Positions 20,836 to 54,290 of a stretch of DNA of 64,000 nt are shown in pieces. The notes below the pieces were generated by a model, which was not told the origin of the DNA, ran no database searches, and saw nothing but the letters and a program-made list of their open reading frames with translations. Each line of letters starts with the position of its first letter. Positions within the stretch are counted from its first letter, which is position 1. This DNA comes from Hyphomonadaceae bacterium (GTDB lineage: Bacteria; Pseudomonadota; Alphaproteobacteria; Caulobacterales; Hyphomonadaceae): NCBI GenBank assembly GCA_965262255.1, contig OZ253505.1:3177406-3241405 (forward strand). Direction: 5' to 3'. Position numbers and translations under genes: made by a program.

Positions 20836-20836
20836 A

Positions 20837-33109: not shown

Positions 33110-33985
33110 ATGTCCCCGACCAAAGTTCACTTTATAAACGTAGGCCAAGGCAATATGGTCTTAATCCAGTCAGAAACTGGTCACAACTTCCTAATGGACT
33201 GCAACGTTACAGAAGTTAATCAACACAGGGTTCTCGCCTATGTTGGGGAACAAATTGGCTGGAGATCGCCAATTACGGCTTTCATATGCTCCCATAGAGA
33301 TGCAGATCACATAAGGGGGATAGAGAAGGTTCACGAAATTTTTCCGATTCAGGAAGTTTGGGACTCAGATTATCCGGGCACAGCAACCGACTCGCCAGAG
33401 TATCGTAACTATATGTATGTCCGTAGCCACCTGCCGAATAGGCGTGTCATTAGTTGCCGCGACCCCTTTATTTATGGTTCTACTAAACTGCTATGTCTTT
33501 CAGCGCAAGACAAGAGACTCGAAAAGAGTGCCAATGCCCAAGGGATTGTATTGAAAGTGGAACACCGCCTTAGTTATTCGAACTTATGTGTTGGAAGCGT
33601 CATGTTGACGGGCGACAGCGACGCAAGTACATGGAAGGACGGGATACTAAAAGATTTTCATCCAAGTGTACTGAAGTCTGATATCCTGATGGCTGGGCAT
33701 CATGGATCTGACACTTTTTTCGAGAGTTCAGCTGGATATGCATTCGATACACGTTATACTTCTCACATAGAGGCAATTTCTCCGGATATGTGTGTTATAT
33801 CTGTCGGTTCTAACGGATACGGGCACCCGGACAGAAGAGCATTAGATATTTATGAACGTTATAGCCGAGGATCTAAGAATGGGATGAAGATCGCGAGAAC
33901 TGATCTCCAAGGTACAATAAGGCTCGAGATAGGATTATCGTCGACGCAAAACGGAGGGAACTGGGAAATGAAGTTCTTTTGCTGA
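33110..33985 (+). CDS. Metallo-beta-lactamase-fold protein (ComEC/Rec2-type MBL domain)
   Basis: VHFINVGQGNMVLIQ, CSHRDADHIRG, LTGDSDAS and LMAGHHGSD follow the ComEC-type MBL motif order. Confidence 0.7.
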   Translation: MSPTKVHFINVGQGNMVLIQSETGHNFLMDCNVTEVNQHRVLAYVGEQIGWRSPITAFICSHRDADHIRGIEKVHEIFPIQEVWDSDYPGTATDSPEYRNYMYVRSHLPNRRVISCRDPFIYGSTKLLCLSAQDKRLEKSANAQGIVLKVEHRLSYSNLCVGSVMLTGDSDASTWKDGILKDFHPSVLKSDILMAGHHGSDTFFESSAGYAFDTRYTSHIEAISPDMCVISVGSNGYGHPDRRALDIYERYSRGSKNGMKIARTDLQGTIRLEIGLSSTQNGGNWEMKFFC

Positions 33986-34158
33986 TCAAATGGGGGCTAC
34001 CGGGTAACGATTCTCTTGAATCGATTTGTGATCGAAATTTATAGTCTTCCCACCACTACTACAATTATTCTTGGCATTGTTTTGCATTGAAAAATGTTCT
34101 TGCGACTGATGATCTGTTCAGTGAATGCATTGTATCTTTCAGCCATGTGTTGAATGAG

Positions 34159-34899
34159 TTAAACAGGTAGTTCGTCCCAAGTTTTTCCATCAAGGATTCG
34201 TCCTGTTTTCTTTTTGTTTGGGCCACCCCACTGCTTGAAGTGAAAAGCTACATTTTGTGAGACACACTGGTCTCTTATCCTCCGAACCCAGTCTGGACTC
34301 AATGGTCTTGCATTTGGTCCACTCTCACCTCCTACTATTACCCATCCGATTCCGCTCAAATTGATTTGACCTAAAGGCCCTAGCAATGGTTCGAGGCTCA
34401 GAAAACGTACGTGAGAAGGGACTCTTCGTAGACTAGCAATTCGCGGGTAATAGTCTTGGTTTTCAACACTGACTCCCATCCATATATTTGACGACCAAGT
34501 TAGTTTTCTTGCTAGTTCTTCGAGGCGATCTGCTCTTTTCGTGAGAATCTGGTAGGTATGTTGAGGAGTATCATTCATTACATCAAACACATCTTGGATA
34601 AAATCTATGGGAACATTCTCGTGAAACAAATCTGACATGCTGTTTACGAAAATTGTACGACCATTCTTCCAGTTTCTAGGATACTCTAGAGTCTTATAGT
34701 CACAGTGGATTTTACCATTCCATTTGGCACGACCGCCTGTTTGTCGCGTTAAGCCGACATACTTCTTCTGTCCCATTAGTGACAGTCGTGCTGCCATGCG
34801 CATGGCATAACAATTGGTACATCCGGGGGACACGACGGTACATCCAGCCACAGGGTTCCAGGTGGTTTCAGTCCACTCAATCGAAGACTTACTGACCAT
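34159..34899 (-). CDS. Phage Gp37/Gp68 family protein (DUF5131)
   Basis: [32 protein letters not shown] is the characteristic N-terminus of the family. Confidence 0.8.
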
Positions 34900-34926
34900 T
34901 TGTTCAACTCGCAGGAAAAGTAATTT

Positions 34927-35124
34927 TCACCTATCGACTATTGTAGGGTTCCGGTTTAGTCTCGGACGCTCCGTCGCGGGCGGATTTACCTTGATTCTAT
35001 TGTCCTTCTCAAGTTCAATCAGCTTGGCCATATAATGCTCTTCTATAAATGGTTTACCTACATAATGTTCTCGGTATGTATCATACACTGTCAATGTTCG
35101 AACTAGAAAGTTTTGTTCGTGCAA
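34927..35124 (-). CDS. Short ORF, possibly the 3' remnant of a gp37 partner gene cut by an IS481 end
   Basis: It ends 27 nt before the gp37 start. Its 5' side abuts the solo IS481 terminus at 35139. Function not recognised. Confidence 0.25.
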   Translation of the reverse strand: MHEQNFLVRTLTVYDTYREHYVGKPFIEEHYMAKLIELEKDNRIKVNPPATERPRLNRNPTIVDR

Positions 35125-35138
35125 GGTCTTGCAAGCCC

Positions 35139-35185
35139 AATCCCTGACATGTGTTTGCGGGACTATACACTATATCAGTCCCTAA
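35139..35185. repeat. Solo IS481 right-end remnant
   Basis: caatccctgacatgtgtttgcgggactatacactatatcagtccc matches the ends of the IS481 copies at about 42800..42846 and 50470..50510. Confidence 0.7.
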
Positions 35186-35204
35186 ATTTTGTGTTACAAT
35201 AGAC

Positions 35205-35295
35205 GTGGAAGATCTCCTACTGGTGATGCTAATTCCAACTTACAGTATAGACGATCTTCCTTTTTTTGTGAAGAACCTATTTTGGTTCCATATCT
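35205..35295. repeat. Hairpin repeat family, divergent copy d
   Basis: ggaagatctcc ... cgatcttcc tttttttgtgaagaaccta is closest to copy e. Confidence 0.6.
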
Positions 35296-35520
35296 CCCGA
35301 GTCAGGTCACATATCAAGAATTTCGTCACATTCTCAAAGACAATACAACTATGTCATTTTGGTTGAAACCCTCGGCGCATCAACGAAAAAACGTGTGCAC
35401 TGATTCGCTGTATATTTGAACAGTTCCGTATACAATTGTGGTTTCGCAGGTTATACTGATTTTCAAACCTCTCACTGGATGAATAAGCTCCGTAGGATTC
35501 ATATTTAGAAGACTTCTTTT

Positions 35521-37800
35521 TCACCATTCTTTTGCAACTTCAATTCGAGCTTTAAGTTCAACAGCTTGTTCTTGTAACTTACCTGGTTCCATTTTAATCG
35601 TATCTAATCTTTCGATGGCCTTTTCTAAGTCGATGAACATTCTCAGATCACTTAGAGAAATAGACCAACGATCACCAAACTCGCTCGATGATTGCATCGT
35701 AGAAAATATTTCAATAAATTTAAGTAAGTAGGAATCATCCTTAATGGTATCTTCTATCCACAATCGCATCTCAGATTGCTCGACATCATCGGCTAGATCG
35801 TGCCATGCGTAGAACACCCACTTAGATTCGAAAACACTAAATATGAAATTCTTATCTCGGATCAAGCGTCTAATTATGCGCAATGCTGTTTCTTTTAGAG
35901 TAGCTAGTTCACGTTCATTCATCCAATTTGGTTCGTCAAAACTTTGATCGAAAGGAAGCGTTCCATGTATCTTTAATATATTACGAATGAAAAACAGAAT
36001 CCAAGATTTAGACTGACCGTTCTCAAGTGTATCGAACATCTCTGTCATTCTAATTTGACTTGCAATTGGCTTTAGCAAAGTAATTGTAAGCGACTGTGCC
36101 TTCCAAAACATGATATATTCTTTGTTATATGCATCTGACTTAGTGTCTGCTATCGGATCGATAGAATTTACCAAAACCTTAAACACACTCAATCGATCGG
36201 CGTCAGACATTTCGTCGTTCTCAGCCATTGACTCGATTAATTCGATTATTCTTTCAGCTTCAGTTCCTCCAGAGGATAGTTCATTCTTAGATGCTCTTAA
36301 AAGTTCCTCAGCTAAATTGTCTGGCTGTTCTGTCGAATGCTTAATGAGATCGCTTATCTTTTCTAAACTCCATCCTAATGATACGTCTGCATAACTAAAA
36401 TAATTCCGCCAGTGAAGGTCGCTTGCTAGCCGTTTTGTCTTACGATTGTTGAAGACTTTCCTGTCGTCCACGGGGGTAAAAAGTTTAAACATATATCGAC
36501 TCTCGTTTTCATCCGCTTCTTCGTCTTTAGCAATAAGACGTTCAATCCCTGGTATAGCCCCGGCTAGCAACGGTTCAATACTTTCAAGTGTAGTGCCGTC
36601 TTCCTTACATGCTAGTATAAGGTTAGAGAGGTACCTACCCCTTTCTATTTTGAGTCGCTCTGGGTCTTCAAACAGATAAGAGTTCATACGTGCACTATAC
36701 ATACGTGCACTATACATACGTGAGTAGTCTCGAATCCAATTGTACAAACGTGGATATTTCATTTCCAGAGTCCATACAAATGTAGCGTCTGCTGGATCGA
36801 TTTTGTTCTCTGATAGACGTAAACGAAACGCCATTAGATTGAGTAGGCGAGAAATATCTCTAGGGTAACCAGCACTACCGACTTGAAACAAGTTTTGAAT
36901 TGTAAGATCGAGTCGTTTCTTACATTCAGAACTTAGTTCATCTATGGCAATTAGACGATATAGTTTTTTCTGTAGGTGTTGAGACAATATTGATGACGAA
37001 ACTTCAGGTACCTTTATAGGAAGTTGTATGATTTTCTCTAAGTAATGATGCCCATCGATACGCAAATGATCAGTTAGCATTTGTGCCACCTTGTCATGAT
37101 CGTAAGATAAAAGATATACAATGTATGGAAGGTTAGCCGTAGAGCGAACCAAGCGCAGTATATTCTGAATTTCTATTGGTTCCAGTCGATCAATGTCGTC
37201 AAGAACTACAAGAACTGGAGTTTTATGTTGGTTAAGTTGTTTGATGACATCTTCTTTGATATCCTCTAAGCTTCTATTGGATTTATTGGGACATAACCAT
37301 GATACGATAAGGTTAAAAACTTTTATCATAAAGCCTATAAGATTCAAGTTCGCCCAATCCAGGTTACTTAACTCTAGGTTTAAGCCGTGTATTGTCTTTG
37401 AGACGTACTTTGCATAAGTGCGAAGTGTATCGATTTGTTTTTTGCTCGAGCTCTTCGATCTGATTTTTTCCTCCAAAGCAGGCAGAAATTTCGCCAGAAT
37501 AGATTCATGGTTTCCAATAATCCATGGAGAATATTTTAGGACTATATGATTCTCTGTTCTGTTTGGTCTCTCAAGATTTCGAAGTACTAAGTTTATCAAT
37601 GATGTTTTTCCTGATCCCCATGGACCAGTTACCCCAAGGACGAGGCTGTCAGGTTGCTTAAAAGATCCAACGATTAAATCGGAGACAACTTTAGCTTGGA
37701 TCGAAAACCTGAAACTATCATCTTCCTTTTTGTTTATCGGAACATCCGCGCTGAGCGATACGTCGGTGGTATTATCTGTCATAGAATAATCCTTCATCAA
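35521..37800 (-). CDS. KAP-family P-loop NTPase
   Basis: VLGVTGPWGSGKTSLINLV is the Walker A in the KAP-typical G.WGsGKT context. VLVVLDDIDRLEP is the Walker B. A hydrophobic insert, LNLIGFMIKVFNLIVSWLC, lies between them. Confidence 0.8.
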   Translation of the reverse strand: MMKDYSMTDNTTDVSLSADVPINKKEDDSFRFSIQAKVVSDLIVGSFKQPDSLVLGVTGPWGSGKTSLINLVLRNLERPNRTENHIVLKYSPWIIGNHESILAKFLPALEEKIRSKSSSKKQIDTLRTYAKYVSKTIHGLNLELSNLDWANLNLIGFMIKVFNLIVSWLCPNKSNRSLEDIKEDVIKQLNQHKTPVLVVLDDIDRLEPIEIQNILRLVRSTANLPYIVYLLSYDHDKVAQMLTDHLRIDGHHYLEKIIQLPIKVPEVSSSILSQHLQKKLYRLIAIDELSSECKKRLDLTIQNLFQVGSAGYPRDISRLLNLMAFRLRLSENKIDPADATFVWTLEMKYPRLYNWIRDYSRMYSARMYSARMNSYLFEDPERLKIERGRYLSNLILACKEDGTTLESIEPLLAGAIPGIERLIAKDEEADENESRYMFKLFTPVDDRKVFNNRKTKRLASDLHWRNYFSYADVSLGWSLEKISDLIKHSTEQPDNLAEELLRASKNELSSGGTEAERIIELIESMAENDEMSDADRLSVFKVLVNSIDPIADTKSDAYNKEYIMFWKAQSLTITLLKPIASQIRMTEMFDTLENGQSKSWILFFIRNILKIHGTLPFDQSFDEPNWMNERELATLKETALRIIRRLIRDKNFIFSVFESKWVFYAWHDLADDVEQSEMRLWIEDTIKDDSYLLKFIEIFSTMQSSSEFGDRWSISLSDLRMFIDLEKAIERLDTIKMEPGKLQEQAVELKARIEVAKEW
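36685..36722. repeat. 15-bp in-frame tandem duplication inside the KAP gene
   Basis: catacgtgcactata occurs twice, followed by a partial copy. It encodes YSRMYSARMYSARM. Confidence 0.9.
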
Positions 37801-38139: not shown

Positions 38140-38448
38140 AGGTCTAGAAATTGAAATTTGGGGAAAAAGCCTCTCGCGATCAAGCGATCTGCAAAAATTC
38201 TCTTAATCCCTATTAGGAGCCTATCAATGAGTATAAAAGATTATAAGCGTCAACGATCAGCGATGGAAGTTCCGTCTCAAGGTAATTTCTCTCTGTTCAA
38301 GGAGCTGTTAGAGCAGTTGTTTGATATGGTCGTTCGTCTAGGGCGCGAAGCCAGTCTCGGAGGGAGTTACGGCCATCGGGTCGGCGAGATTGGTGGTTAT
38401 AGGAATGGTTACAAACCTGAAGGTCTACCTAAGAGGCTGAACGAATAA
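38140..38448 (+). pseudogene. IS256-family left end and N-terminal transposase fragment
   Basis: The terminus is taggtctagaaattgaaatttgggg. FKELLEQLFDMVVRLGREASLGG...YRNGYKP aligns to the fragments at 47003..47242 and 53944..54189. The palindrome interior is missing in this copy. Confidence 0.7.
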
Positions 38449-38681: not shown

Positions 38682-39590
38682 TCAATCTACCTCTTGCGTT
38701 TCCGGATACGATTCAGGGATCGCATTAACTGAATTCATTCTTTGTAGAGCGTTCGCAGACCTTGTTCGGAGCCATCCGCAATTCTCAGTTGTAAACACCT
38801 TTGCACCGCGATGCATGAACCCACGTATGACGGCTTTCTTCGGGTGTTCATCGTCATCTCTCGAAGCACATACGTATGCTTTTTTGTTCATATCATCAGG
38901 TGAAACTCTACTCGGACTCTTTGCTCCGAGCAAACAGTCCAATAAGAATTCATCAACGTTCCGTCTAGAACCATGGTGAGGAACCTGAATTTTCGAACCG
39001 TGTTTCAAGGGAAGTCTCAATCCAGCTTGATGGGAACTGTTGATAACATTCCTAAGTGCACTCCTTCCCGCGTCTCCAGTTAACAATATATCGACACCAT
39101 CGAAATTTGCCCACTGAACTACACTCATTTCGTTCTCACAGCTTGTTTCCTCTTTCTGGAAATATTCAATACCCCATTTATCCCTTAGCCAAGGATTAGC
39201 CGTTCGTAACCCTCTATTAGGGCTCTCATCAAATTTGTTTATAACTTGGTCTGGAGTTTTTTCAGACTCCAAGAGCATACTGCAAAAGTGTTCTGCGGTA
39301 GGCGAAACAACCTTGAATTTGCCGATTTTTTGCCTAAGGAACGGTTCACGAACTTCAATCCCTCTATCCAACGCAAATTTTTCTAGTTCCGCCAGATTTG
39401 AGTAAGTTTTTCTCAGTCTTTCTGCCAGATTCCTCGGGTTTTGAAATCTTTTGAAATAGGGTAGCAGTTTGTCCTGACTCGGGACATATTGCAGAGAGAT
39501 GAGAGTTACTGTAGTGGGGATTATGCTACTTGGAAAGGCTACGAATGGATACCGTATCGTAAGTTCGACCAACAATCTGGTTAGCGTCAT
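38682..39590 (-). pseudogene. MBL-fold (ComEC-type) protein, 5'-truncated by a hairpin repeat copy
   Basis: VDILLTGDAGRSAL...KIQVPHHGSRRN is the C-terminal MBL block. The N-terminal metal motif is absent. The first codons run into repeat copy e. Confidence 0.55.
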
Positions 39591-40073: not shown

Positions 40074-41810
40074 TCAGTTATCTTCTAAACGAGATTTTCC
40101 TGTTAGATAATGAGTTTTACTTCGATAGATTTTCAGATCACTGTCGTTTTTGGCATTGGTAACCGGAGCAAACCGGTTCGTTTTGTCACCAATTATCATG
40201 TTTGAATTGGTTTGTAGCGCTTTCTGTCGTTGTTCTATGGAATCGGTGTTTTGCTGGACAGTTTTGCGATGATTCTTCGTAATGTCGCCAATAGAGGAAC
40301 CATTATCACTGATCGGATCATTTAGATATTGATCTTTACGGTTATTCAAATTGGAGATTTTTGACGTATTGAAGCTAGCGATCTGTTCGATGTCTTCCTG
40401 ACTTTTGACTATGGTTGTTGGAAGATTAGAAGGTTTTTGCCAGTTGTCCAAGGTCGGTTGTCCTAAAAGTTGGTTTGCTTGTTCGCGAATAAAGTTTTGT
40501 GCTTGGTGTTCTACCCACAATCGATCAGCTTTATCTCCAGATGTCCATCTTCGGCTAGCTTCGGTATAGCCGACCGTACCGCCATGGTCATTTTCTTGGT
40601 TGGACATGTAATCCAAAAACGCATTATCCCAGTTTGCCACAAACTGACTTCCACTATGTTCAACTCTTGACGAAAGATCTCGTGCCGCGTTTGCTCGAGC
40701 GTGGTATTTTTCAATGTCCTCGCTAGCGTTTTGGGCTTCAGAATAGTTTGCCATAAATGATTCTTTCCATTCAGTTTCGCTACCAGCAGAATTTGTTTTG
40801 GAATTCCTCAAGAGTGTTCCAATAACATTGCTATTCCCCTCATTGCTCGAATCACTGATTACGGCATCGCGAGCCGCTTCTATGATTTCGGACTCTCTGG
40901 TTTCATTGCCAGCGGAACCGCGAATCCCAATTTCTGCCCTTCCTACACCAGCTAAAGGAAGTCCAAGTTCTTTCCTTGCACTTAATCCTGCATAGGCTTC
41001 AACCGCTAATTTTCGATCACGAGAATCCGTAAAACGTTCCGCAAATCGGTTTGCCGACGTAACTATTCGGTTGACACTCTCGGAGGCTTCCGTTGATGAG
41101 TGTATTCCTGTGAGCTCCTGAACTCCTCGACCTTGACTGACTTCCCAAGTTAAATCTGCAACATTCTGAGAAATTGCGGAATAAGCCATACTTGACCTGT
41201 TTGCGGCAGCCTCGCGTTCTTCCTGAGACCGACTGGCCTCTGATTGAAGGCTGGCTGATAATCCACTTTGATAATCGATATGCGTTGCTCCGCGAGACAC
41301 TGCTCCAGTGCCATCGTATACGCGTTGCCCAGCAGTGGTTGATTTAGTTCTTCCACCTTCCACTGTATTCCAAGAGCCTTCTCCAACATCTAAGAATCCA
41401 CTTGTCACTTGCCGATTTCCCTCCAAGGATGAAAATCGGTGAGTGTTAAATCCCGTGTTACCCAGCGAAATGTTTCCGGTAGCCATTTCTCTCGCCGTGG
41501 ACTGGGCAGCAGACTGCGCCGGGTGGAGAAAGCTCTGACTTAGACTTGCAAAAGCTGTCGCACCTTGGCCAAGTTTTGCTGCCATGAATGGAATCATCAA
41601 AGTCAGATATCCCGCGATCATCGAAATATCAGCGTGAACTGCTTCAATGCTTCTTTGAGTCACTAGTGTTATCGCTTCTTCCGAAGCGGGCGTGTAACTT
41701 GCTCCTAGGCTTCTCAGCTCGGCAGCCCCGAGCATTATTCTATGGAGTATCTGTAAAGTCCCACACTCTTGGGCGCGAAATGATATACTACCATTATACA
41801 GCAATTCCAT
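40074..41810 (-). pseudogene. TraG-like conjugative mating-pair protein fragment (tentative), 5'-truncated by IS481
   Basis: The sequence is rich in S, G, N, A and Q, with ATGNISLGNTGFN-type motifs reminiscent of the region after the F-type TraG N-terminal domain. The first 11 or so codons (MELLYNGSISF) are encoded by the IS481 left end. Confidence 0.4.
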
Positions 41811-42848
41811 CTGGAGGAAACAGTTATGGGACAGGTATTACACACTAACGCAGTCACTACACATGCGATCAGAAAAGAGATCCAAGAGGCCCCCTCGTCG
41901 ATCTCAAATCGCGCATTAGCGAGGTGCTACGGATTAAATTACCGCACGGTGAAGAGATGGCGCGAGCGTGATTCGGTCGAAGACCGACGGTCGGGTCCGC
42001 AAGACCCGCGGCCAAAGAGTTTGAGTAAAGCAGAGGAAGCCGCCTGTGTTTATTTCCGGACGACAACGAGGTTGTCGTTGGATGACTGTTTGTATTCTCT
42101 GCAAGATTCAATTCCCCATTTAAAGCGATCGAACCTCCATCGTGTATTTCAGAATCACGGGATATCAACACTTCCAAAAGAAGAAAATAAAACTCCCGAG
42201 ACGAAGAAGTTCAAAGAGTATCCGATCGGTTACTTCCATGTCGACATAGCCCAAGTCAACACCGAAGAAGGTCGGCTCTATATGTTCGTAGCCATCGACC
42301 GCACATCGAAATATGCCTACGTCGAACTGCACGACAAATCGACGCGAAAAGTCGCAGTTCAGTTTATCGAAACGTTGGTTGAAAAAGTGCCTTACACTAT
42401 CCATACGATCTTGACTGACAATGGCAGTCAGTTCACTAATTCGAGAAACCCTAAAGTCTCGGTGAAAGAAAACGAATCATCCGATCATAAAATCAATAAG
42501 GATGTCAAATGCAACGCATTTGACGCTGTTTGCTCAGAGAATAATATCGAACATAAGTTGACACTTCCCTATCATTCCTGGACGAACGGACAAGTGGAAC
42601 GAATGAATAGAACCATCAAAGAAGCTACTGTGAAAAAGTATCACTATGAGACACATGACAAACTGAAGGAACACATCCAGAGTTTTATTGATGCCTATAA
42701 TTTTGCTAAAAGGTTAAAGGCTCACAAAGGTTTAACTATCTTCGACTTTATCAACAAATGTTGGAAAGAGGAACCAGAAAGATTTATTAAAAATCCCGCG
42801 TCCATGTTTGCGGGACTATACACTTTACATCATTCCTCTCCAACTTAG
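41779..42848 (+). mobile_element. IS481-family IS, copy 1
   Basis: The left end is aatgatatactaccattatac. The right end is gggactatacactttacatcatt. The same ends are seen at copy 2. Confidence 0.75.
41826..42848 (+). CDS. IS481-family transposase (rve integrase core)
   Basis: An N-terminal HTH is present. YFHVDIAQV...LYMFVAIDRTSKY...ILTDNGSQFT...TNGQVERMNRTIKE gives the DDE spacing. Confidence 0.9.
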   Translation: MGQVLHTNAVTTHAIRKEIQEAPSSISNRALARCYGLNYRTVKRWRERDSVEDRRSGPQDPRPKSLSKAEEAACVYFRTTTRLSLDDCLYSLQDSIPHLKRSNLHRVFQNHGISTLPKEENKTPETKKFKEYPIGYFHVDIAQVNTEEGRLYMFVAIDRTSKYAYVELHDKSTRKVAVQFIETLVEKVPYTIHTILTDNGSQFTNSRNPKVSVKENESSDHKINKDVKCNAFDAVCSENNIEHKLTLPYHSWTNGQVERMNRTIKEATVKKYHYETHDKLKEHIQSFIDAYNFAKRLKAHKGLTIFDFINKCWKEEPERFIKNPASMFAGLYTLHHSSPT

Positions 42849-43178: not shown

Positions 43179-43823
43179 TTGATGAACTCAAAGGAGATTC
43201 CGATGGATAGAGAACTACAAACACTTCAACATACCCCTAACACAGAATCTGACGACCTTTTGGTGTCTAGCGCAACTCGTGAAATGCCTGACACCGCTAG
43301 AATGCTTGGTCGTCCCGAAACATTGGACAAAACTAGCTCCAACTTAATGGAGAATACAGAAACAGACTCCAACGATATCTTAGCGACCTATTTAGATCGC
43401 CTTGTACGTACCGAGTCGAGACTTGATAAGGTGGAAACCAACCAACTAGACTTCTTTAAACTTATGGAATCTAGAATCGACACGTCGGAGGTTGAACTGA
43501 AAGATTGCATGAAACAAACAGAGTCAAGACTTTTGGAACGCATCTCTAGTTTGGAGGATATTCAAAAAACACAAAATGCCAAAACAGACTCTAACTACAA
43601 AGAACTTTACAGCAAGATAGACGCAGTCCACAAAGATCTAAGTGAGAAAATGGAAAAAATGTTTGAAAAAATGATGGAAAGCTTCAATGAGACACAGATA
43701 CAGTTTAGTGAGGTGAACGAAGAACTTGGGAAACTCCACACTGAAATTTTACATCTGAAACGCATAGATAGTTGGATTTTTGGGTTTTTGGCTTTGCTGG
43801 TATCAGGCGCAGTTATTGCATAG
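43179..43823 (+). CDS. Coiled-coil, C-terminally anchored protein (paralog of 5291..6010)
   Basis: It shares HLKRIDSWIFGFLALLVSGAVIA with the paralog and has a coiled-coil body. Confidence 0.65.
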   Translation: MMNSKEIPMDRELQTLQHTPNTESDDLLVSSATREMPDTARMLGRPETLDKTSSNLMENTETDSNDILATYLDRLVRTESRLDKVETNQLDFFKLMESRIDTSEVELKDCMKQTESRLLERISSLEDIQKTQNAKTDSNYKELYSKIDAVHKDLSEKMEKMFEKMMESFNETQIQFSEVNEELGKLHTEILHLKRIDSWIFGFLALLVSGAVIA

Positions 43824-44032: not shown

Positions 44033-46813
44033 ATGAACTTTAAACAATACACGTCCGGAGGGAAACATAAGTACAAACGATTAGCAAAAGTAGTGAGAAA
44101 ACTGCTTAGAAAGGAAATTCGAAAGCATAGTTGCTTACGACTGGTGGCAATCCAAAGTAGAGCAAAAGATACGAAATCCTTACGAGACCATTTCTCGGAG
44201 GAGCAATTGCAATCCGATTTAGATATCGCAAGAGACCGCAAAGATCTTGCCGGATGTCGTGCGATATTCTATACAAATCGAGATATCCGTGCTTTTACAA
44301 GCAAAGCAGTCCTGCAAGGCCTGTTTGATATAGATTGGCAACGAACGAAAGTTCACCATCCCAATCTAGACGATAATGCGGAAGACTTGTTTCGGTCAGA
44401 CAACTATGTAGTAAAACTTAAAGCGAACCAAACAAGCAGGCCGAAGTACAAAGAGCTAACTGGTCTATGGTGCGAAGTGCAGGTTCAGACTGTTCTGAAT
44501 CACGCTATTTCGGAGCTGTCTCACGACATCATATATAAACCTAAGATAGAAGGTGAGTTTGGACTTCAAGTGCTTAACGAAATTCGAGAAGCAGTGAAGG
44601 AAGTTGATGGTAGGCATATTGTTCCTGCTGGCCACATGTTGAGTAAGATTGATAGCGATTTCAGGCGCCTCCGAGAAGATAAGGCAGTCTATGATACAAA
44701 TATAATTACTCAAATCTCTAAAACTGCTAACCAAAAAGACCGACTATCGTCTCTAGAATCGTTGCGGGAACATATTCTGCCAAATTTCATTGATCCTTTA
44801 CAAGAAATTCCGGAATTACTTAAATACCTGCAAGATGCATGGATTTCTGCAGATCGGTCTTATACAGAAATTTGTGATGATAAAGCGCCGCCAAACGGAG
44901 ATGACATACTTACTGACGAATTGCAAGAAATTTCGTCTATTTACGGAGAGTACCTTATTTTCTATCCTGAACAGGGCTACAGCATACTTAAACACCTCTA
45001 TACCAATACAAGGACAGATGAAAGTCATGCAGAACTTAGTGATTTGGCGGAACAACTGGTTAGGCACGACAGGTGGATTTGGGAAAGATATGGTCCACGT
45101 ATGCAGGTTGTATATGCCAACAAAATTTATGAAGATGAACACAAACTTGGCATCTCCTCGATTGTCATTCGGATTGCCAGCAAGATACTTGGTACAGAGG
45201 TGGACGAAGCACAGCAAAAGATAAATTGCATTCAAAGGGGTAAAGCGAGCATATTGTACCGAGGAGAACTTGCAAAAGCGCGAAGAAAGGCTATTCAATG
45301 TTTGTTCAACCTCCACAAAGGAAGTACAGAAATTAGCACGAAGAAAGAAACCATAAGTGTCCTTTCGCAAGGTTTGGTGGTTCCTTCAGTTCCAGGGTTT
45401 GATGGCGCAATAATCCGAATGTTGATTAACGATTTTTGCTTTGTTTTGAAGAATTTAGCTAATCATTTCGATTTTGATGACTTTTACGCTTTGTTAAAGT
45501 TGGAAAAAAGAATTTTCTTTTGCTGGAAGAGCTACTGTGAAACAGTAGGTAAACTAATAGCCAACGATAAACTAGAAGAAGCAACAAATCGGCTATCAAG
45601 GAAAATTAAGAATTTTAGTACCTTATTGAATCAAGATTCAGGATTTGTTACTTACAAACTCCTGATAGGTTTTCGTCCGATTTTTGCATTCAATTGGAGC
45701 ACCGGCAAGTTAAAATTGGCGGAAAACGAAAAGTATCGTCAGGACGAACGGGTTCGTCTTGCGGACGAAATTAGCTCCAACTTTAGCGATGAATGGAAGA
45801 TACGTTTACAGACGCTCATTTCACAAAATTCATCGGATCTTGCTAGATTTCAACCGTTGTATGAATTTTTTAGCGTCCTTGGGGAAAAGAACCCCCAAAT
45901 TTTATGGGAGTTTCTCTGTAAAAGCGACATATTGCCTGAACGGGCAGTTTCAAAATTTACTGTTCCTCTGTTGCGAACTGACTATGAGGAACGGGTGTTA
46001 GAACTGATGTCTCAATGGGCAAATGATTCAAAGTATTGTCATGAAATTGCATTCACACTGTGTGAATATGAAGGTACGGACAAATGTCTGGTGTTGAGTC
46101 TGTTAGAATCTGTATTTGAACAGCGAGATTTTGAGACATTGAATACATTATCCAGCCTCTCGTTTCGAAGATATAGCGAAGACAAAAAATTTTGGAAGGA
46201 CGAGTTGTTCGTCCCAGCGCTTTCATTCTATATCTGTAATGGAGACTTCGGTTGGCTTGACGCGACATCATACCTAGCAGATGGAGCGTCTATGTATGAT
46301 GAATTTGAGGATACAGAGAAAGATTTAGCGCTTTCTGCACTTACAAGAAAATCTATTCTGTGTGACGATTCTATGATAATTTTGTATGCTCTAACATCAA
46401 AAGAACCAGAGCGGTTACTTTCATTCTTCAGAAGTCGGATTCAACTCAGTCAGGAGTCGAAAGGCGAAGGCTATAAAATTGTCCCAGATAATATTTGGCG
46501 AGTGCAGAAGGTTTTGCAACCTCATCCAAAGCTACTTGTATCAACAATTTTAGAATGGTGCAAAATTTATCCTCATGTGCAAGACGACGTAGTCAATGGG
46601 GTACTTAGAAAGATTTATACTATTCCCACCGATAGCGTTGTCGTGGTGCTGAAAGATACAGTCGCAACGGCAAGTAAAGACACTCTATTGGTTATAGTAA
46701 ATATGCTAGGTGGGTATCTTGGTGATCATCGGTTACTCCCTGTGTTAAGAGACATCATAGCTTCTTCTAATTGCGACGCAGAGATTGAAAACGAGGTCTC
46801 GCAAGTTTTGTAA
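44033..46813 (+). CDS. RelA/SpoT-homolog (small alarmone synthetase / toxSAS-like) nucleotidyltransferase fused to a long helical C-terminal region
   Basis: QSRAKDTKSLRDH, DLAGCRAIFY, FRSDNYVVKL and WCEVQVQTVLNHAISELSHDIIYKP follow the RSH synthetase motif order. About 750 further residues are helical. Confidence 0.7.
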   Translation: MNFKQYTSGGKHKYKRLAKVVRKLLRKEIRKHSCLRLVAIQSRAKDTKSLRDHFSEEQLQSDLDIARDRKDLAGCRAIFYTNRDIRAFTSKAVLQGLFDIDWQRTKVHHPNLDDNAEDLFRSDNYVVKLKANQTSRPKYKELTGLWCEVQVQTVLNHAISELSHDIIYKPKIEGEFGLQVLNEIREAVKEVDGRHIVPAGHMLSKIDSDFRRLREDKAVYDTNIITQISKTANQKDRLSSLESLREHILPNFIDPLQEIPELLKYLQDAWISADRSYTEICDDKAPPNGDDILTDELQEISSIYGEYLIFYPEQGYSILKHLYTNTRTDESHAELSDLAEQLVRHDRWIWERYGPRMQVVYANKIYEDEHKLGISSIVIRIASKILGTEVDEAQQKINCIQRGKASILYRGELAKARRKAIQCLFNLHKGSTEISTKKETISVLSQGLVVPSVPGFDGAIIRMLINDFCFVLKNLANHFDFDDFYALLKLEKRIFFCWKSYCETVGKLIANDKLEEATNRLSRKIKNFSTLLNQDSGFVTYKLLIGFRPIFAFNWSTGKLKLAENEKYRQDERVRLADEISSNFSDEWKIRLQTLISQNSSDLARFQPLYEFFSVLGEKNPQILWEFLCKSDILPERAVSKFTVPLLRTDYEERVLELMSQWANDSKYCHEIAFTLCEYEGTDKCLVLSLLESVFEQRDFETLNTLSSLSFRRYSEDKKFWKDELFVPALSFYICNGDFGWLDATSYLADGASMYDEFEDTEKDLALSALTRKSILCDDSMIILYALTSKEPERLLSFFRSRIQLSQESKGEGYKIVPDNIWRVQKVLQPHPKLLVSTILEWCKIYPHVQDDVVNGVLRKIYTIPTDSVVVVLKDTVATASKDTLLVIVNMLGGYLGDHRLLPVLRDIIASSNCDAEIENEVSQVL

Positions 46814-47065
46814 GAGTTTGACGGGGCATTTGGACCGATTGGAGTTGCTGAGAGATTCGAAGACAAGATAGAGTTGCTTCAAGAATGGGGTGAAGACGAG
46901 AGCAAAAAGGTTCGATATTTTGCCCTTCGATTGTCAAAGGAATTGAAGAACAAAGCACAACTTGACCGACGCCGTGGAGAAGAAAAGATTGCTGAAACCA
47001 AATTAGAATTTGGAGAATCCTTGAATTCTCCCAAGATTCCTGAACACAAAGAAAACGAAGATTAA
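46814..47065 (+). other. In-frame continuation of the RSH-fusion ORF beyond a single TAA
   Basis: The frame has no stop from 46814 to 47062. EFDGAFGPIGVAERFEDKIELLQEWGEDESKKVRYFALRLSKEL... includes a HEAT-like VRYFALRL. Confidence 0.6.
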
Positions 47066-47171
47066 ATTTTGAGAAGCCAGCAAGTTCGACAAACCTGACG
47101 GGTTAGGTAGATATCCAAGTTTGTAACCATCTGTTCCTATACACTCTGATCTCGCCAACCAGATGACTATA

Positions 47172-47188
47172 CCCCCCCCCCCCCCCCC
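47172..47188. repeat. C17 homopolymer
   Basis: Counted directly. The paralogous copy at about 54040 reads ccccctcc. Confidence 0.95.
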
Positions 47189-47360
47189 GAGAGATGCTTC
47201 GCGATCTAGACAAACCAGTGTATCTAAAAACTGCTCTAACAATTACGTGAGCGGAGAGAGTTTTTCTTGAGACGGAACTTCCATCGCATCTCGTTGACGC
47301 TTATAATCTTTGATGCTCATTGATAGGTTCCTAATAGAAATTAAGACGGTTGTGTGTGTT

Positions 47361-47369
47361 GGGGGGGGG
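47361..47369. repeat. G9 homopolymer preceded by (tg)4
   Basis: Counted directly. The paralogous copy at about 54198 reads ttggagg. Confidence 0.95.
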
Positions 47370-47641
47370 AGCTTGATTGCGATAAGTGTTTTGAGGGTAT
47401 TATAAAATCCCCTGAAAACACTTTTTCCCCAAATTTGAATTTCCAGACTTAGGCGAAAAGTTGAGTCTAGGCGTAGAATCCTGTTGAACAGTCGAATTTT
47501 CTATGGTTTTTCGCTTGGTATTGTTACTCCGCAACAGTTTGATTTTTTTATTTTCGCATGGTTTTTGCCTTGAAATATCCTTGCTCAATGTCCATGTAAA
47601 CTGGGATTATGTTATGTATCTAATTTCTGGGAGTATTAATC

Positions 47642-48622
47642 TTGATAAATGTTGTCTGCTCGTATTCGCACGAGGATGAGATCTACTGCGCAGAATTGGT
47701 AAAACACCTAAAGCTAATGGAATCTAAAGGCCTCATCAACACTTGGCATGACAGGAAGATAAAACCTGGCCAGGTACTTGACGAGGAAATAGACGAGGCA
47801 TTTTCTTCGGCTGATATTATTCTATTGCTGATTAGCTCTGACTTTTTTAATTCTGACTACTGCCGCGAAACAGAGATGCCAAATGCGCTCAAGCGACACG
47901 ATGAAGGCAAATCTATAGTAATTCCAGTTATTCTTCGCTCGTGCGACTGGGCAGACTCCCCAGTCGGAAAGTTACTTGCAGTCCCGACGGACGGTGAGCC
48001 GCTGAGTCAGTTTTCAAACATTGACGATGGGCTTGTTCAGGTAGTGGATGCTGTAAAGAAAGCTCGAAAAGTTCTTTTGCAGAGGAAAGAGGAGTCTGGA
48101 AACCGAATAACTTCTTCTTCCAACAAAACAAACTCAAATGAAGAGAGTTCGCTCAATTCTCGGAACACGTTCATCACTAGATCAAAGAATCTCGAAATCA
48201 GGAAAAATTTTACTGATCGTGATTACGAACTTGCGTTAAAAGAGTGTATTCGCTTTCTTGGAGAGTTTTTTACGAATTCATTAGCGGAATTGTCTAACTC
48301 GAACGGCGAGATTGATTATGACATTGATTGGCATGGCAATGATAGGTTTGAGTGTAAAATCTATGAGAATGGACGAAGTGTAAGCCATTGTCACATTTGG
48401 CGTGTACGAGATGAATTCAGTCAGAACGAAATTCGATACTATAGCGGAGAGTGGTCTATGGGCACTCATAACTATAGCATGTCTGCAGGTTCAGACGGGA
48501 GATCAATCGGATTCGAAGTCGTCGTAGGGAGGACTTTCGATGCCGAGCCAGAGAAATTGTTGAGTCAAGTAGAGGTGGCAGAATATTTTTGGGCGAATTT
48601 TATTGAACCGTTACAAATTTAG
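47642..48622 (+). CDS. TIR-domain protein with an unassigned 170-aa C-terminal domain
   Basis: VVCSYSHEDE...ADIILLLISSDFFNSDYCRETEMPNAL...VIPVILRSCDW is a bacterial TIR pattern that includes the conserved Glu. TTG start. Confidence 0.8.
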   Translation: MINVVCSYSHEDEIYCAELVKHLKLMESKGLINTWHDRKIKPGQVLDEEIDEAFSSADIILLLISSDFFNSDYCRETEMPNALKRHDEGKSIVIPVILRSCDWADSPVGKLLAVPTDGEPLSQFSNIDDGLVQVVDAVKKARKVLLQRKEESGNRITSSSNKTNSNEESSLNSRNTFITRSKNLEIRKNFTDRDYELALKECIRFLGEFFTNSLAELSNSNGEIDYDIDWHGNDRFECKIYENGRSVSHCHIWRVRDEFSQNEIRYYSGEWSMGTHNYSMSAGSDGRSIGFEVVVGRTFDAEPEKLLSQVEVAEYFWANFIEPLQI

Positions 48623-48949: not shown

Positions 48950-49618
48950 ATGAAATTTATCTACGTTGATGAAAGCGGAGACCGCAGCCAAGGAGAGGTC
49001 TTCGTGATGGGCGGGCTAATGGTGGATGCTTACAAACTTCGCAAGAAGACTGCCGATGTATATGAACGACTTAAAAGGTTATCAAAACAGCATGAGGGAG
49101 AAAAGTTCGAATTAAAGACCAAGAGATTTATAGAGGGTAGGGGAGGTTGGAAAAGCATAAGTAGATTGGAGCGTCAAAATATACTTTCTGGCTTGATTCG
49201 TGATGCTTTGCATGGGGGATCAGAAGTATTCGCTATTGGGCTAACATTTAAGGCGTTTGACAATGCAAACAGTAGTAATCTCGGTCAACCGTTCGGGAAA
49301 AATTACTGGGTTGGGTCAGCAATGTTCATAAGCGCGCTCGTTCAAAGACAAAATCAAAAGCTATCTGGCAACAAAGGAAATACCGTATTTATAGTCGATG
49401 AAAACATGCACGAAACTTCAAAACTTTCCGATTGTTTAGTCCCGCAAACAGGTTGTCAGGATGATATACTTCCATTATACAGCAATTCTATCTTTAGGAA
49501 ACAGTTATGGGACAGGTATTACACCCCAACGCAGTCACTACCCATGCGATTAGAAAAGAGATCCAAGAAGCGCCCTCATCGGTCTCAGATCGCGCATTAT
49601 CAAGGCGCTACGGATTAG
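48950..49618 (+). pseudogene. DUF3800-family protein, 3'-truncated by IS481 insertion at about 49461
   Basis: MKFIYVDESGD is the DUF3800 signature start. From about 49461 the frame is IS481 left-end sequence. Confidence 0.6.
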
Positions 49619-50512
49619 GCTTGCCAACAGTTCAGAAATGGCGTAGGCGGGGTTCTGTTGAAGATCGCCGTTCTGGCCCTCAAGAGCCTCGGCCAAAGAG
49701 TTTGAGTAAAGCAGAGGAAGCCGCCTGTGTTTATTTCCGGACGACAACACAGTTGTCGTTGGATGACTGTTTGTATTCTCTGCAAGACTCAATTCCCCAT
49801 TTAAAGCGATCGAATCTCCATCGTGTATTTCAGAATCACGGGATATCAACACTTCCAAAAGAAGAAAACAAAACTCGCGAGACGAAGAAGTTCAAAGAGT
49901 ATCCGATCGGTTACTTCCACGTCGACATAGCCCAAGTCAACACCGAAGAAGGTCGGCTCTATATGTTCGTAGCCATCGACCGCACATCGAAATACGCCTA
50001 CGTTGAACTGCACGACAAATCGACGCGAGAAGTCGCAGTTCAGTTTATCGAAACCTTGGTTGAAAAAGTGCCTTACACTATCCATACGATCTTGACTGAC
50101 AATGGCAGTCAGTTCACTAATTCGAGAAACCCTAAGGTCTCGGTGCAAGAAAACGAATCACCCGATCATAAAATCAATAAGGATGTCAAATGCAACGCAT
50201 TTGACGCTGTTTGCTCAGAGAATAATATCAAACATAAGTTGACACTTCCCTATCATCCCTGGACGAACGGACAAGTGGAACGAATGAATAGAACCATTAA
50301 AGAAGCTACTGTAAAAAAGTATCACTATGAGACACATGACAAACTGAAAGAACACATCCAGTGCTTTATCGATGCCTATAATTTTGCTAAAAGGTTAAAG
50401 GCTCACAAAGGTTTAACTATCTTCGACTTTATTAACAAATGTTGGAAAGAGGAACCAGAAAGATTCATCAAAAATCCTGACAACCTGTTTGCGGGACTAA
50501 ACAGCTACCTAA
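49461..50512 (+). mobile_element. IS481-family IS, copy 2 (right end degenerate)
   Basis: The left end atgatatacttccattatac and the whole body are near-identical to copy 1. The right end reads tgtttgcgggactaaacagctacc. Confidence 0.7.
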
Positions 50513-52072: not shown

Positions 52073-52855
52073 TCACAGCCGATTCAGTAAATACTGTCTT
52101 ACAGTTTCTGCAAAAGCATCGATTTCAACTGATGAAACTAGCATCAATTCGTATAACGGTTTTAGTTTAGGAAAAACTATCGGCAATATCTCTCCGTCGG
52201 GTGTGTTACTTGGAATAACTACGGACATTTCGAATTTGTCTTCGCAAATTTTCTTGTGAGATTCAAACAACCATCTTTCATTACCACGTATCCAAGAATT
52301 CGCTACCCGTCCATCGAGTCCAGACCATTTGAAAGCCAAGGTTATTCTACCAACTTCTTGATTGAGGTTCATCGCCTGACCGTATCGAATCGCGATGATT
52401 GACGAAGCAAGAACATCAATCACTGGAAGATCAACATCGATACCAATGAACGGCTTTCTTTTCTTTCTTCCATGACTTCGGTCGTCGTCGTCCGCTAAAG
52501 TTCTTAGGTGATAGAACTCTCCCTTTGTCGAAAATCGATTGAATCTTATAGAATCAATAGAACCTTGTTCATCTTCGGAATAACAATGAGTCTCAAATCC
52601 GTCACTTAACTTATTGGTCTGATAGTATTTCCCACCAACTTCGTCGTGAAATGACCATGAATGATAATCGCCAACGTATGGTGTCGCTTCTTGAATCGTT
52701 TGGATGAACTTTGCCTTGTCAATGGAACTTGGCTGGAATTCCTCAAACCTAGCTGCAACCTCAAAAAGACCGTGCGAGGGAAAATTCTTTCCTTCAGTTT
52801 CAAGTCTCTTTTCTGCAAACCGACGACCGGTATTTAGAAGGGTGCTGGGATTCAT
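52073..52855 (-). CDS. Hypothetical protein, translationally coupled partner of the TIR gene
   Basis: Its ATG overlaps the TIR TGA as ATGA (52852..52855). I recognised no family motif. Confidence 0.6.
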   Translation of the reverse strand: MNPSTLLNTGRRFAEKRLETEGKNFPSHGLFEVAARFEEFQPSSIDKAKFIQTIQEATPYVGDYHSWSFHDEVGGKYYQTNKLSDGFETHCYSEDEQGSIDSIRFNRFSTKGEFYHLRTLADDDDRSHGRKKRKPFIGIDVDLPVIDVLASSIIAIRYGQAMNLNQEVGRITLAFKWSGLDGRVANSWIRGNERWLFESHKKICEDKFEMSVVIPSNTPDGEILPIVFPKLKPLYELMLVSSVEIDAFAETVRQYLLNRL

Positions 52856-53511
52856 GTTCTTTCCTTACATTTTTTGATCAATGTTTTTTGTACCGTCGCT
52901 ACGCTATCAGTATTCCTTGCCAAGATTCCATTATGGTTTTCCGCAGTTCTTGATGTAACAGGAATCGAAACTTCAGGCTCGGTAGTTCCGGCTAAATTGG
53001 GACTAATGAGCGGAGTAGTCTTCTGTTCCGTGTTTTTGGTCGCATTATATTTCTGGAGTAGTTTATTTGCCGCATCCTTTACGGCTAGTACTACCTCGAG
53101 ATATGCTTCATCGCTATTTTCAAACGTACTGATTGCTATACCATCTTTTGGAACAGCCATAAGTTTACCAAATGGCAGTTCTTCCCAGTTGCAGGGGCGT
53201 AGGATTACTGGTATCACGATTGCGTCCCCTTTCTCTGATCGACCCAACGCATTCTCCATCTCAATTTCATAGCAAAAATCCGAGTGTATAAAGTCAGAAC
53301 TGATCATGAGAAGGACTATATCGGCAGAATTAAAATTTTTGCCGATCTCACTCTTGAAATCCGACCCGGCATCAATATATCTGTCGTACCACAGATCAAT
53401 CAATCCTTGGCGACGAAAGGAGCTTAGATGCTTTTTCAGGCAGTCTACACGTTGTTCGTCTTCATGAGCATAAGAAATAGCGAGTGACAACAATGCACGT
53501 TCTCCATTCAT
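52852..53511 (-). CDS. TIR-domain protein
   Basis: LAISYAHEDE...ADIVLLMISSDFIHSDFCYEIEMENAL...VIPVILRPCNW is paralogous to the TIR domain of 47642..48622. Confidence 0.8.
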   Translation of the reverse strand: MNGERALLSLAISYAHEDEQRVDCLKKHLSSFRRQGLIDLWYDRYIDAGSDFKSEIGKNFNSADIVLLMISSDFIHSDFCYEIEMENALGRSEKGDAIVIPVILRPCNWEELPFGKLMAVPKDGIAISTFENSDEAYLEVVLAVKDAANKLLQKYNATKNTEQKTTPLISPNLAGTTEPEVSIPVTSRTAENHNGILARNTDSVATVQKTLIKKCKERT

Positions 53512-53710: not shown

Positions 53711-54290
53711 CTACTTGTACCATTCCTCAAACTTGTGTAATGAGTGTCCCATAACTTGTTCCTCCAGATGGAATTGCTGTAGAGTACTATAACACGAGTT
53801 TGCAGAATGGTACATATATACACCCTTGATATAGCATTCTGCAGCAACATTCAGTAATGCCCCACTACTCCGCTGACCGCAGTTCATTGTGTACGGGTAT
53901 AGCGGTGTGTCGACAGAACCCGATAATTTGGAAGCCAGAAAGTTCAACGAGCTTGATGCGTTAGGATCACCGTCAGGTTTGTAACCATTCCTATAGCCAC
54001 TGATCTCCCCAACCCGATGACCATACCCCCTCCGAGAGATGGATCTCGATCCAGACGAACGACAGAATCTAACAGCTGCTCGAAAAGCTCCTTAAACGGA
54101 GAGAGATTTCCATGAGACGGAACTTCCATCGCATCTCGTTGACGCATATAATCTTCTATGCTCTTTGATAGGCTCACGATAGGGATCAATACGATTCTTG
54201 GAGGTTACTTGATTGCGAGAAGCGTTTTCGGGGGATCTTAAAATCCCCTGAAAACGCTTTTCCCCAAATCGGAATTTCCAGACTTATCAG
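53711..54290 (-). pseudogene. IS256-family left end and decayed N-terminal third of the transposase
   Basis: The terminus taagtctggaaattc is at 54290. FKELFEQLLDSVVRLDRDPSLGG then ...ECYIKGVYMY... is a degenerate eMYv.GVS block. Confidence 0.65.

Follow-up and report, generated by a model that had tools for sequence, protein, structure and literature searches.

A RelP/RelQ-like synthetase domain fused to a giant HEAT-like solenoid, found as a prematurely terminated copy in a Hyphomonadaceae defence island

What kind of protein opens with the motifs of a RelA/SpoT homologue (RSH) synthetase, continues through hundreds of residues of predicted helix and then meets a stop codon behind which the same frame remains open? 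This question is raised by a gene at positions 44033..46813 (+ strand) of a 64,000-nucleotide stretch of contig OZ253505.1 from a Hyphomonadaceae bacterium (contig positions 3,177,406 to 3,241,405), which is referred to below as the window. The open reading frame (ORF) translates into 926 aa and is closed by a premature TAA. An earlier note on this DNA assigned the gene to the toxic small alarmone synthetases (toxSAS) or to the CapRel type, and left three options for the stop codon: a recent nonsense mutation, a read-through site, or a split of the gene into two products. The explanation that we favour overall, and regard as reasonably probable, is that a RelP/RelQ-like enzyme is joined to a sensor solenoid in one chain, and that the copy found here has been freshly truncated.

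The window protein is identical to the database protein P0001, and the profile built for its family matches residues 1-926 at 983.7 bits. The RSH (RelA_SpoT) synthetase core covers aa 42-171 (44156..44545, + strand), as delimited by the Pfam match, the match to RelP and the predicted fold. The Pfam model RelA_SpoT (PF04607) reaches 24.5 bits over this region (E=3.5e-5), which is below its gathering score of 27, and this score alone would leave the assignment marginal. A precomputed PF04607 match is present in almost all relatives, with 36.7 bits for the member at locus L173. The family profile matches RelP/YwaC (6fgk) at E=5e-12, RelP of S. aureus at 7e-10 and RelQ at 2e-4. The motif series that the earlier note had read in the first ~190 aa is present as R43-A-K45...S49, D71-L-A-G-C-R76, E148-V-Q-V-Q-T153 and H157...H164...Y168-K169. 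It corresponds to the invariant columns of a 68-sequence alignment: the residues R43, K45, D71, G74, R76, E148, Q150, H157, H164 and Y168 are identical in all 68 aligned sequences and also occur in the window protein. They comprise the ATP-binding R and K, the Mg2+ aspartate of D.xG.R and the glutamate of E.Q..T. The check by a RelA_SpoT hidden Markov model (HMM), which the earlier note had suggested, thus gave a sub-threshold score for the window protein itself, while the family profile and the fold agree with the assignment and the catalytic residues are intact.

The predicted fold points in the same direction. In an AlphaFold2 model of the closest relative, the intact protein P0002 (87% identical), the N-terminal domain matches RelQ (5dec_B) at a target template-modelling (TM) score of 0.72 and RelP (6ewz_A) at 0.71 in Foldseek. 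A model of the first 190 aa of the window protein itself has a predicted local distance difference test (pLDDT) value of 81 and matches RelQ and RelP at TM 0.5-0.64. In the Foldseek ranking of this second model, RelQ and RelP chains occupy ranks 1-31, long Rel enzymes ranks 32-47 and CapRel (7ztb/9erv) ranks 48-50. Judged by profile and model together, the N-terminal ~175 aa are predicted to form a genuine RSH synthetase fold, to which the ordinary small alarmone synthetases (SAS) RelP and RelQ come closest among solved structures.

The label of a toxSAS or CapRel-type protein could not be upheld. With the N-terminal profile, no match to CapRel, FaRel2 or Tas1 chains was obtained even at E<=10, and CapRel is found only at the end of the structural ranking. 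No conserved gene that might encode a cognate antitoxin lies adjacent to the synthetase gene in 87 related loci, and no pseudo-zinc-finger domain is detected in the C-terminal region. The G-loop also deviates from the usual pattern. The motif Y-x-S-x-H, in which the Tyr stacks on the acceptor base, reads F-x-S-x-N in the window protein, and EIQIRT reads EVQVQT. Across the 68 sequences, the first column of the G-loop is occupied by F in 49 (72%) and by Y in 19, so that its aromatic character is retained; the last column holds N in 48 and H in 20. The tyrosine in this position is required in CapRel (PMC9712102) and in Pag1B (10.64898/2026.04.06.716658).

The RSH domain is followed by a helical linker at aa ~178-292 (~115 aa; 44564..44908, + strand), delimited from the AlphaFold2 secondary structure and including a helix of ~44 residues. 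The linker is specific to the RSH-fused family. It is followed by a HEAT-like alpha-solenoid, recognised by Foldseek and hhalign, of which aa ~293-926 are retained in the window protein (44909..46810, + strand); the full module extends to about aa 1005. The AlphaFold2 model of P0002 has a pLDDT of 88 and a predicted TM score (pTM) of 0.70. It contains a long helix at residues 178-221 and is then almost purely helical up to residue 992, with a single small β-hairpin at residues 389-406. The best fold matches in the PDB are SF3B1, transportins (karyopherin), importin-13 and CAND1, all with a probability of 1.0 and TM scores of only 0.2-0.3. In this model, such matches to HEAT/ARM proteins indicate a fold class and not a specific relative. 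The Pfam HEAT model gave no match in the window protein, and faint matches to PF02985 (HEAT) were obtained in some solenoid-only relatives. The ~750 aa of helical C-terminus proposed in the earlier note are borne out by the model of the 87% relative, in which they resemble a HEAT/ARM solenoid, and so is the fusion of an RSH synthetase domain to a very large helical region. A function of the C-terminus as a sensor or pseudo-antitoxin is plausible, and the pairing of this solenoid with a PIN_12 nuclease in a second family, described next, lends it indirect support.

The solenoid is not restricted to RSH proteins. A search of a word-indexed database with a profile restricted to the C-terminal region, in which the word filter let only 4 matches through, led to P0077, a protein of 794 aa without an RSH domain, which is encoded 4 bp downstream of a PIN_12 gene (PF16289, formerly DUF4935). 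The family of P0077 has at least 187 members, and apart from a few shorter fragments their length is nearly always ~795-820 aa. Comparison of the RSH-solenoid with this solenoid-only family by hhalign gave a probability of 100% and E=2e-140 over 699 columns, in which residues ~293-1005 of the RSH protein align to residues ~98-794 of the solenoid-only protein; the linker lies outside this common region. Within it, conservation is highest in the C-terminal tail, TGVVSGEFG..AY..KK.E...WL.D....VR.FA......L......RRAEEEI, and it is this tail that the stop codon in the window removes.

The association of the solenoid-only proteins with PIN_12 is strict. The PIN_12 gene lies 1-4 bp upstream of the solenoid gene in four of four genome contexts. 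Of the 58 metagenomic loci that extend far enough upstream, 56 show a recognisable PIN_12-like ORF immediately before the solenoid gene, and the gap is below 30 bp in 54. The remaining two, L151 and L168, were considered as carriers of a third type of effector. This was rejected, as both encode divergent PIN_12-like partners that match the partner profile at 1e-15 and 1e-12, which brings the total to 58/58. The operons were collected as loci L089-L092 and L093-L172, and some of them are also located near integrase, type IV secretion system or Mrr genes. PIN_12/DUF4935 is a VapC-like PIN domain to which no function has been assigned (PMC5499597). PADLOC contains no model for the PIN_12 partner or for the ~795-aa solenoid, and no description of the operon was found in the literature searched. 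The two architectures have in common a homologous solenoid of ~700 aa including the C-terminal tail. They differ in the enzyme, which in the operons is a VapC-like PIN nuclease from a separate upstream gene and not a fused RSH domain.

How is the stop codon within this conserved module to be understood? The ORF, the in-frame TAA at 46811..46813 (+ strand) and the open frame beyond it were all confirmed as noted earlier, with the extension amounting to 83 sense codons. Alignment to the C-termini of relatives identifies 46814..47065 (+ strand) as the orphaned 3′ end of the gene, which closes with the original stop codon, TAA at 47063-47065. The sequence past position 46813 encodes the tail motif GxFG...W...VR.FA...RR.EE.I, and the near-invariant residues G934, G937, W952 and F963 are still encoded there. 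A stop-free run of 83 codons has a chance of ~0.5% at ~41% GC by our own arithmetic (~6.1% stops per random codon). We take the coding status of this frame to be decided by sequence homology, which leaves the open-run statistic moot. The read-through product has 78 homologues, nearly all of 990-1,035 aa, that cover 97-100% of the query. In 46 of 46 aligned relatives the column of the stop codon holds a sense residue, and the next 83 positions are conserved (GEFG, W, VR.FA, AAEQRRSEE). P0002, a protein of 1,010 aa encoded on contig L001, has the codon TAC (Tyr927) in this position, so that the lesion relative to L001 is a single C→A change at codon 927 (TAC→TAA). The comparison of orthologues at this position, another check proposed in the earlier note, therefore finds a sense codon there and relatives that do not end at it. 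In the comparison with L001, the ratio of nonsynonymous to synonymous substitution rates (dN/dS) is 0.31 over codons 1-190 and 0.33 over codons 191-926. The value of 0.28 obtained for the orphaned tail is not elevated, though it is based on 27 differences only. Before residue 926, the window protein departs from highly conserved columns at six positions. All six departures are common to P0002, which marks them as traits of the lineage and not as decay.

From these comparisons, we conclude that the TAA arose by nonsense mutation very recently, an assembly error being the less likely alternative, and that it is neither a read-through site nor an evolved split. A functional stop codon would imply programmed read-through, or the production of a 926-aa toxin-sensor and a separately translated C-terminal partner starting, for example, at the TTG at 46874. 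The open downstream frame, the conserved residues kept in it and a TTG-initiated ORF of 63 aa (46874..47065) would all be compatible with this, but an intact tail is equally expected of a very recent lesion. The sense residue found throughout the relatives, with TAC in the nearest one, speaks against a functional stop codon. The gene is never divided into two ORFs among 87 related loci, and nearly every one of the best 150 representatives of the family is a single chain of ~1,000 aa. Moreover, TAA is the least leaky bacterial stop codon. The options of read-through and of a gene divided between a toxin-sensor and a small C-terminal partner, which the earlier note had left standing, are in this way largely refuted, and we consider a functional TAA hardly tenable. 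An error of assembly or sequencing, with the gene intact in the organism, would fit the single-base difference from a close relative and the perfectly preserved tail without extra divergence. The codon is outside any homopolymer, while substitution errors are uncommon in finished assemblies and homopolymer indels are the usual error. Real gene decay is also seen nearby, where inserted insertion sequences truncate a traG-like and a DUF3800 gene. An error is accordingly quite unlikely in our estimation. This leaves the recent nonsense mutation, the first of the three options, as the supported one.

With regard to the preferred reading of a fresh truncation, the allele found here is most likely a new pseudogene or a crippled copy. 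It is probably non-functional, because the truncation removes the most conserved element shared by both solenoid families. A constitutively active product would be counter-selected; the loss of function is what we infer and not what we observe. Scans for promoters and terminators returned fewer matches than shuffled sequence.

Apart from this allele, the gene belongs to a widespread and uncharacterised family of single-chain proteins of ~1,000-1,010 aa. We identified 322 loci in 185,579 genomes, with one genome per species. They are distributed mainly among Alpha-, Beta- and Gammaproteobacteria, and also occur in Nitrospirota, Poribacteria and Desulfobacterota. In an exhaustive HMM search that covered 1.84 billion representatives, 1,280 proteins matched at E<=1e-30, and the best 150 of them are nearly all matched from end to end. 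The labels given to these proteins by NCBI and JGI are 'RelA/SpoT domain-containing protein' or 'ppGpp synthetase/RelA/SpoT-type nucleotidyltransferase'. The RSH-solenoid architecture is not modelled in PADLOC v2, where the sole match is a weak one of the RSH core to the candidate system PDC-S33. In the literature searched, we found no description of this architecture.

The RSH-solenoid gene is a stand-alone unit without a cognate antitoxin or partner. All-versus-all clustering of neighbours (up to four ORFs on each side, 87 loci) revealed no family in more than five loci, and the five loci that share a neighbour family are copies of one integrative and conjugative element (ICE). The 142 immediate neighbours fall into 93 Pfam families, led by phage integrase (4) and followed by DUF6538, Xre-like antitoxin helix-turn-helix (HTH), HTH_3 and HTH_31 (3 each). 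At the end of an ICE from Hyphomonadaceae (L002), the start of the RSH-solenoid gene overlaps the stop of the RES gene (9228-10004) of an Xre-RES pair, and an integrase gene follows. A second distant member adjoins metabolic genes, a third is located near HipA, AbiEii and an integrase, and a fourth near VapB, AbiJ and a KAP NTPase. At locus L006 (13030-15385), from one distant relative, three ORFs of 243, 444 and 90 aa follow in a run that overlaps the RSH-solenoid gene, and they may be a lineage-specific accessory operon. The 243- and 444-aa ORFs have no Pfam match, and none is on record for the 90-aa ORF.

Among the characterised systems, RelP and RelQ (SAS1/SAS2; 5DEC, 6EWZ, 6FGK) are the best match in both sequence and structure and share the same motif set, R.K...S, D.xG.R, E.Q..T and H...H...YK. 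They are, however, stand-alone proteins of ~210-230 aa that form tetramers, whereas the family described here adds more than 800 aa of helices and has a patchy distribution partly on mobile elements. The window protein also differs from them in the G-loop and in the EVQVQT motif described above. The fused CapRel protein CapRel-SJ46 (PMC9712102) offers a resemblance in the possible mode of working. It likewise has an N-terminal RSH-fold enzyme and a non-catalytic C-terminus on one chain without a separate antitoxin gene, the C-terminus could both autoinhibit and sense, and the setting is one of defence or mobile elements. The parts are different. In CapRel, the C-terminal ~100 aa form a pseudo-zinc-finger domain that has a YXXY hinge, in place of which the present family has a linker and a HEAT-like solenoid of ~700 aa, and the G-loop Tyr of CapRel is Phe here. 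Given this, the lack of a CapRel match in sequence at E<=10 and the low structural ranks of CapRel, the RSH-solenoid protein does not appear, by sequence and modelled structure, to be a member of the CapRel subfamily. Pag1B, the GRel toxSAS of the PANGU type I system, has a comparable layout, in which a helical linker connects the RSH synthetase domain to a regulatory domain at the C-terminus. Before activation it is not toxic; once activated, it makes (pp)pGpp and infection is aborted (10.64898/2026.04.06.716658). In contrast to the family described here, which has a giant solenoid and no conserved partner gene, Pag1B depends on a nucleoid-associated sensor protein from another gene, and its DNA-mimic domain is small and acidic. 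The PADLOC candidate PDC-S33 is matched weakly by the RSH domain at profile positions 46-173 (E=2e-7 for the window protein, 1.7e-8 for P0002). This 349-position profile matches the catalytic core only and nothing in the solenoid, and PDC-S33 is not the same system.

We propose that the solenoid would act as a regulatory or sensor module that holds a growth-arresting enzyme inactive until a trigger binds. The solenoid is assigned this role because the RSH site is intact, the solenoid is attached to it, and the same solenoid is obligatorily paired with a nuclease-type enzyme in the PIN_12 operons. The trigger would most plausibly be a protein of a phage or another mobile element. Once released, the RSH domain would use ATP to pyrophosphorylate a nucleotide, or possibly tRNA, and the cell would arrest. 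The output could be alarmone synthesis with consumption of ATP, as in Pag1B/GRel, or pyrophosphorylation of tRNA, as in CapRel; the likeness to RelP and RelQ weakly favours a nucleotide acceptor. Such a protein would constitute a one-protein abortive-infection or conflict system, with a logic like that of fused CapRel and different components. The structural and evolutionary statements made above are held with high confidence. For a conflict or defence role, which is argued by analogy, we consider the chances to be even.

Several observations weigh against this proposal. The catalytic domain is closest to housekeeping RelP and RelQ and not to known toxic RSHs, and the aromatic position of the G-loop holds Phe, both in the window protein and in 72% of the family, in place of the Tyr that CapRel and Pag1B require. 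Only three relatives were found in 2.9 million viral contigs. The immediate neighbours in 84 loci are only lightly enriched in mobile-element and toxin-antitoxin genes, which makes the association with defence anecdotal and not statistical. The TAA may, in addition, be an assembly error, in which case the gene is intact. The first of these observations would also suit a physiological, non-toxic alarmone synthetase, that is, a large regulated SAS in which the solenoid serves as a scaffold that couples synthesis of (p)ppGpp or (p)ppApp to a cue unrelated to conflict. The ordinary metabolic or regulatory genes present in many of the neighbourhoods would suit it as well. This explanation is countered by the patchy spread of the family (322 of ~186,000 species genomes over several phyla) and by its variable flanks, with some members in ICEs or beside integrase or toxin-antitoxin genes. 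The copy studied here is located in a dense defence island, and the only other known partner of the solenoid is a PIN-family nuclease in a tight operon, an effector-swapping pattern typical of conflict systems and atypical of housekeeping regulators. We therefore regard a purely physiological role as unlikely.

Another explanation would assign the gene a partner. A ThsB-like TIR gene at 47642..48622 (+ strand; PADLOC ThsB1 1.7e-89, Pfam TIR_2 3.3e-15) begins 576 bp downstream on the same strand, and the two genes could form a Thoeris-like system in which the TIR protein makes a signal derived from nicotinamide adenine dinucleotide (NAD) and the RSH-solenoid replaces ThsA. The same arrangement including the spacer is kept in L001 at ~91% nucleotide identity. 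No SIR2, Macro or SLOG match indicative of ThsA was obtained in the 36 scanned ORFs of the window, the rest being short (<=169 aa) or antisense within larger genes. The RES gene that is overlapped by the family member in the Hyphomonadaceae ICE encodes another NAD-consuming enzyme. A tblastn search of the window's TIR proteins against 89 loci, however, recovered L001 only, the TIR gene was not found on the contig of the 53% relative P0003, and no neighbour is conserved across the family. The identity of 87-91% between the window and L001 reflects only the recent common ancestry of one island, and the 576-bp spacer contains a dispersed repeat. The second ThsB-like gene of the window has an overlapping partner ORF of its own (52073-53511). 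The RSH-solenoid is not a homologue of ThsA, and the combination of ThsB and ThsA that defines Thoeris is not found. A conserved RSH-TIR pair was rejected on the grounds that only the window and its 87% relative have a TIR gene next to the synthetase gene, and we hold a two-gene Thoeris-like system to be very unlikely. The RSH and TIR genes are neighbours in a young shared island, which does not imply a functional partnership.

The second ThsB-like gene is located at 52852-53511 (- strand; PADLOC 1.1e-56), and the TIR domains of the two ThsB-like genes are 46% identical. It overlaps a downstream ORF of 260 aa (52073-52855), which has no Pfam or PADLOC match and could be an unrecognised effector. 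The window also contains a RES toxin gene (4343-5104, + strand) beside a candidate Xre-type antitoxin ORF (4006-4383). RES thus occurs beside the family member in the ICE, and RES and TIR in the window. Both are NAD-consuming enzymes, and the recurrence may well be a coincidence.

The spacer between the RSH-solenoid and ThsB-like genes contains a copy of a non-coding dispersed repeat (47068..47451, no strand assigned), which was detected by blastn against the window. Partial copies are present at 53927-54286 (75%), 38201-38364 (81%) and 2018-2097 (89%). The repeat contains a hairpin with 18-nt arms (47384-47423), a run of 17 C (C17, 47172-47188) and a run of nine G (G9, 47361-47369), and it looks like a miniature inverted-repeat transposable element (MITE). 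It is also present in L001, whose alignment with the window is interrupted near the G tract. The ORFs of the repeat lack a Pfam match even at E<=1, and no match in the plasmid database and no similarity to IS256 were found. The earlier note had placed a fragment of IS256 at about 47060. This finds no support in the sequence, and the dispersed repeat is presumably what had been taken for it; the flanking insertion sequences (ISs) are of the rve type and IS481-like.

Two IS481-like copies flank this part of the window. The left copy is located at 41780..42822 (+ strand; Pfam rve/rve_3) and the right copy, identified by Pfam, at 49461..50503 (+ strand), where it overlaps the 3′ end of the DUF3800 ORF. 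They are 93% identical and in direct orientation. The pair brackets a segment of ~6.6 kb with the genes for a coiled-coil protein, the RSH-solenoid protein, ThsB and the truncated DUF3800 protein, and the segment resembles a composite transposon. The left copy abuts a 5′-truncated traG-like gene (40074-41810). The coiled-coil protein (214 aa; 43179-43823, + strand) has a hydrophobic C-terminal segment and only weak matches of the coiled-coil type (ZorA, LeoA, HlyD-like). Its gene ends 209 bp upstream of the RSH-solenoid gene on the same strand. The contig L001 begins ~200 bp upstream of its RSH-solenoid gene, and those bases are unlike the window.

The 64 kb of the window as a whole represent an island of defence genes and mobile elements with a flat GC content of 41-44%. 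It contains a type III restriction-modification system (23675-29736; a Res-like protein of 989 aa and a Mod protein of 968 aa), a DUF5131/PDC-M41B gene (34159-34899), a gene for a PifA-like KAP NTPase (35521-37800; 8.7e-114) and PDC-M48B (38682-39590). A STAND-like NTPase of 2,141 aa is encoded at 6236-12661 (- strand). This ORF shows weak P-loop/NACHT/STAND matches at aa ~270-460 and a weakly Cap4-nuclease-like N-terminus, and may encode an Avs-like giant defence protein. Further genes of the island encode a methyltransferase-HNH fusion and an HsdM-like methylase (these two within 56489-61283), ankyrin proteins and at least five transposases. The region 19450-37800 shares neighbours with L007, the contig of the 28%-identical family member P0016. 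The common set comprises a KAP NTPase, an ankyrin protein, a fragment of a papain-like peptidase, an HTH protein of 465 aa and DUF5131, which suggests a related host or a related island. This set, the ankyrin genes and relatives in metagenome-assembled genomes from sponges give hints of a host-associated bacterium.

Of the new leads obtained from this locus, the connection with the PIN_12 operons is the most useful. It is possible, and we put it forward tentatively, that the solenoid is a new bacterial immune sensor, which would recognise a component of a phage or mobile element and release either the fused pyrophosphokinase or the operon-encoded PIN_12 nuclease. The two architectures would then form one abortive-infection family in Proteobacteria, Nitrospirota and other phyla. 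In view of its F-x-S-x-N G-loop, the RSH version might make an alarmone or modified nucleotide unlike the known products of toxSAS. To our knowledge, RSHs used as weapons have so far been found in three forms, namely small toxins with antitoxins, fused CapRel with a sensor of ~100 aa, and GRel with a separate sensor protein. The family described here would add a fourth form, a RelP/RelQ-like synthetase that carries a giant HEAT-like solenoid on the same chain. With more than 1,000 clusters at 50% identity and no model in PADLOC v2, it is a tractable candidate for the discovery of defence systems. The copy in this genome has only just been truncated, in a defence island riddled with ISs, and is an example of how fast such genes turn over. 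The occurrence of the same solenoid with an RSH enzyme or with a PIN nuclease represents a natural experiment in effector swapping and provides a concrete module for the recognition of triggers.

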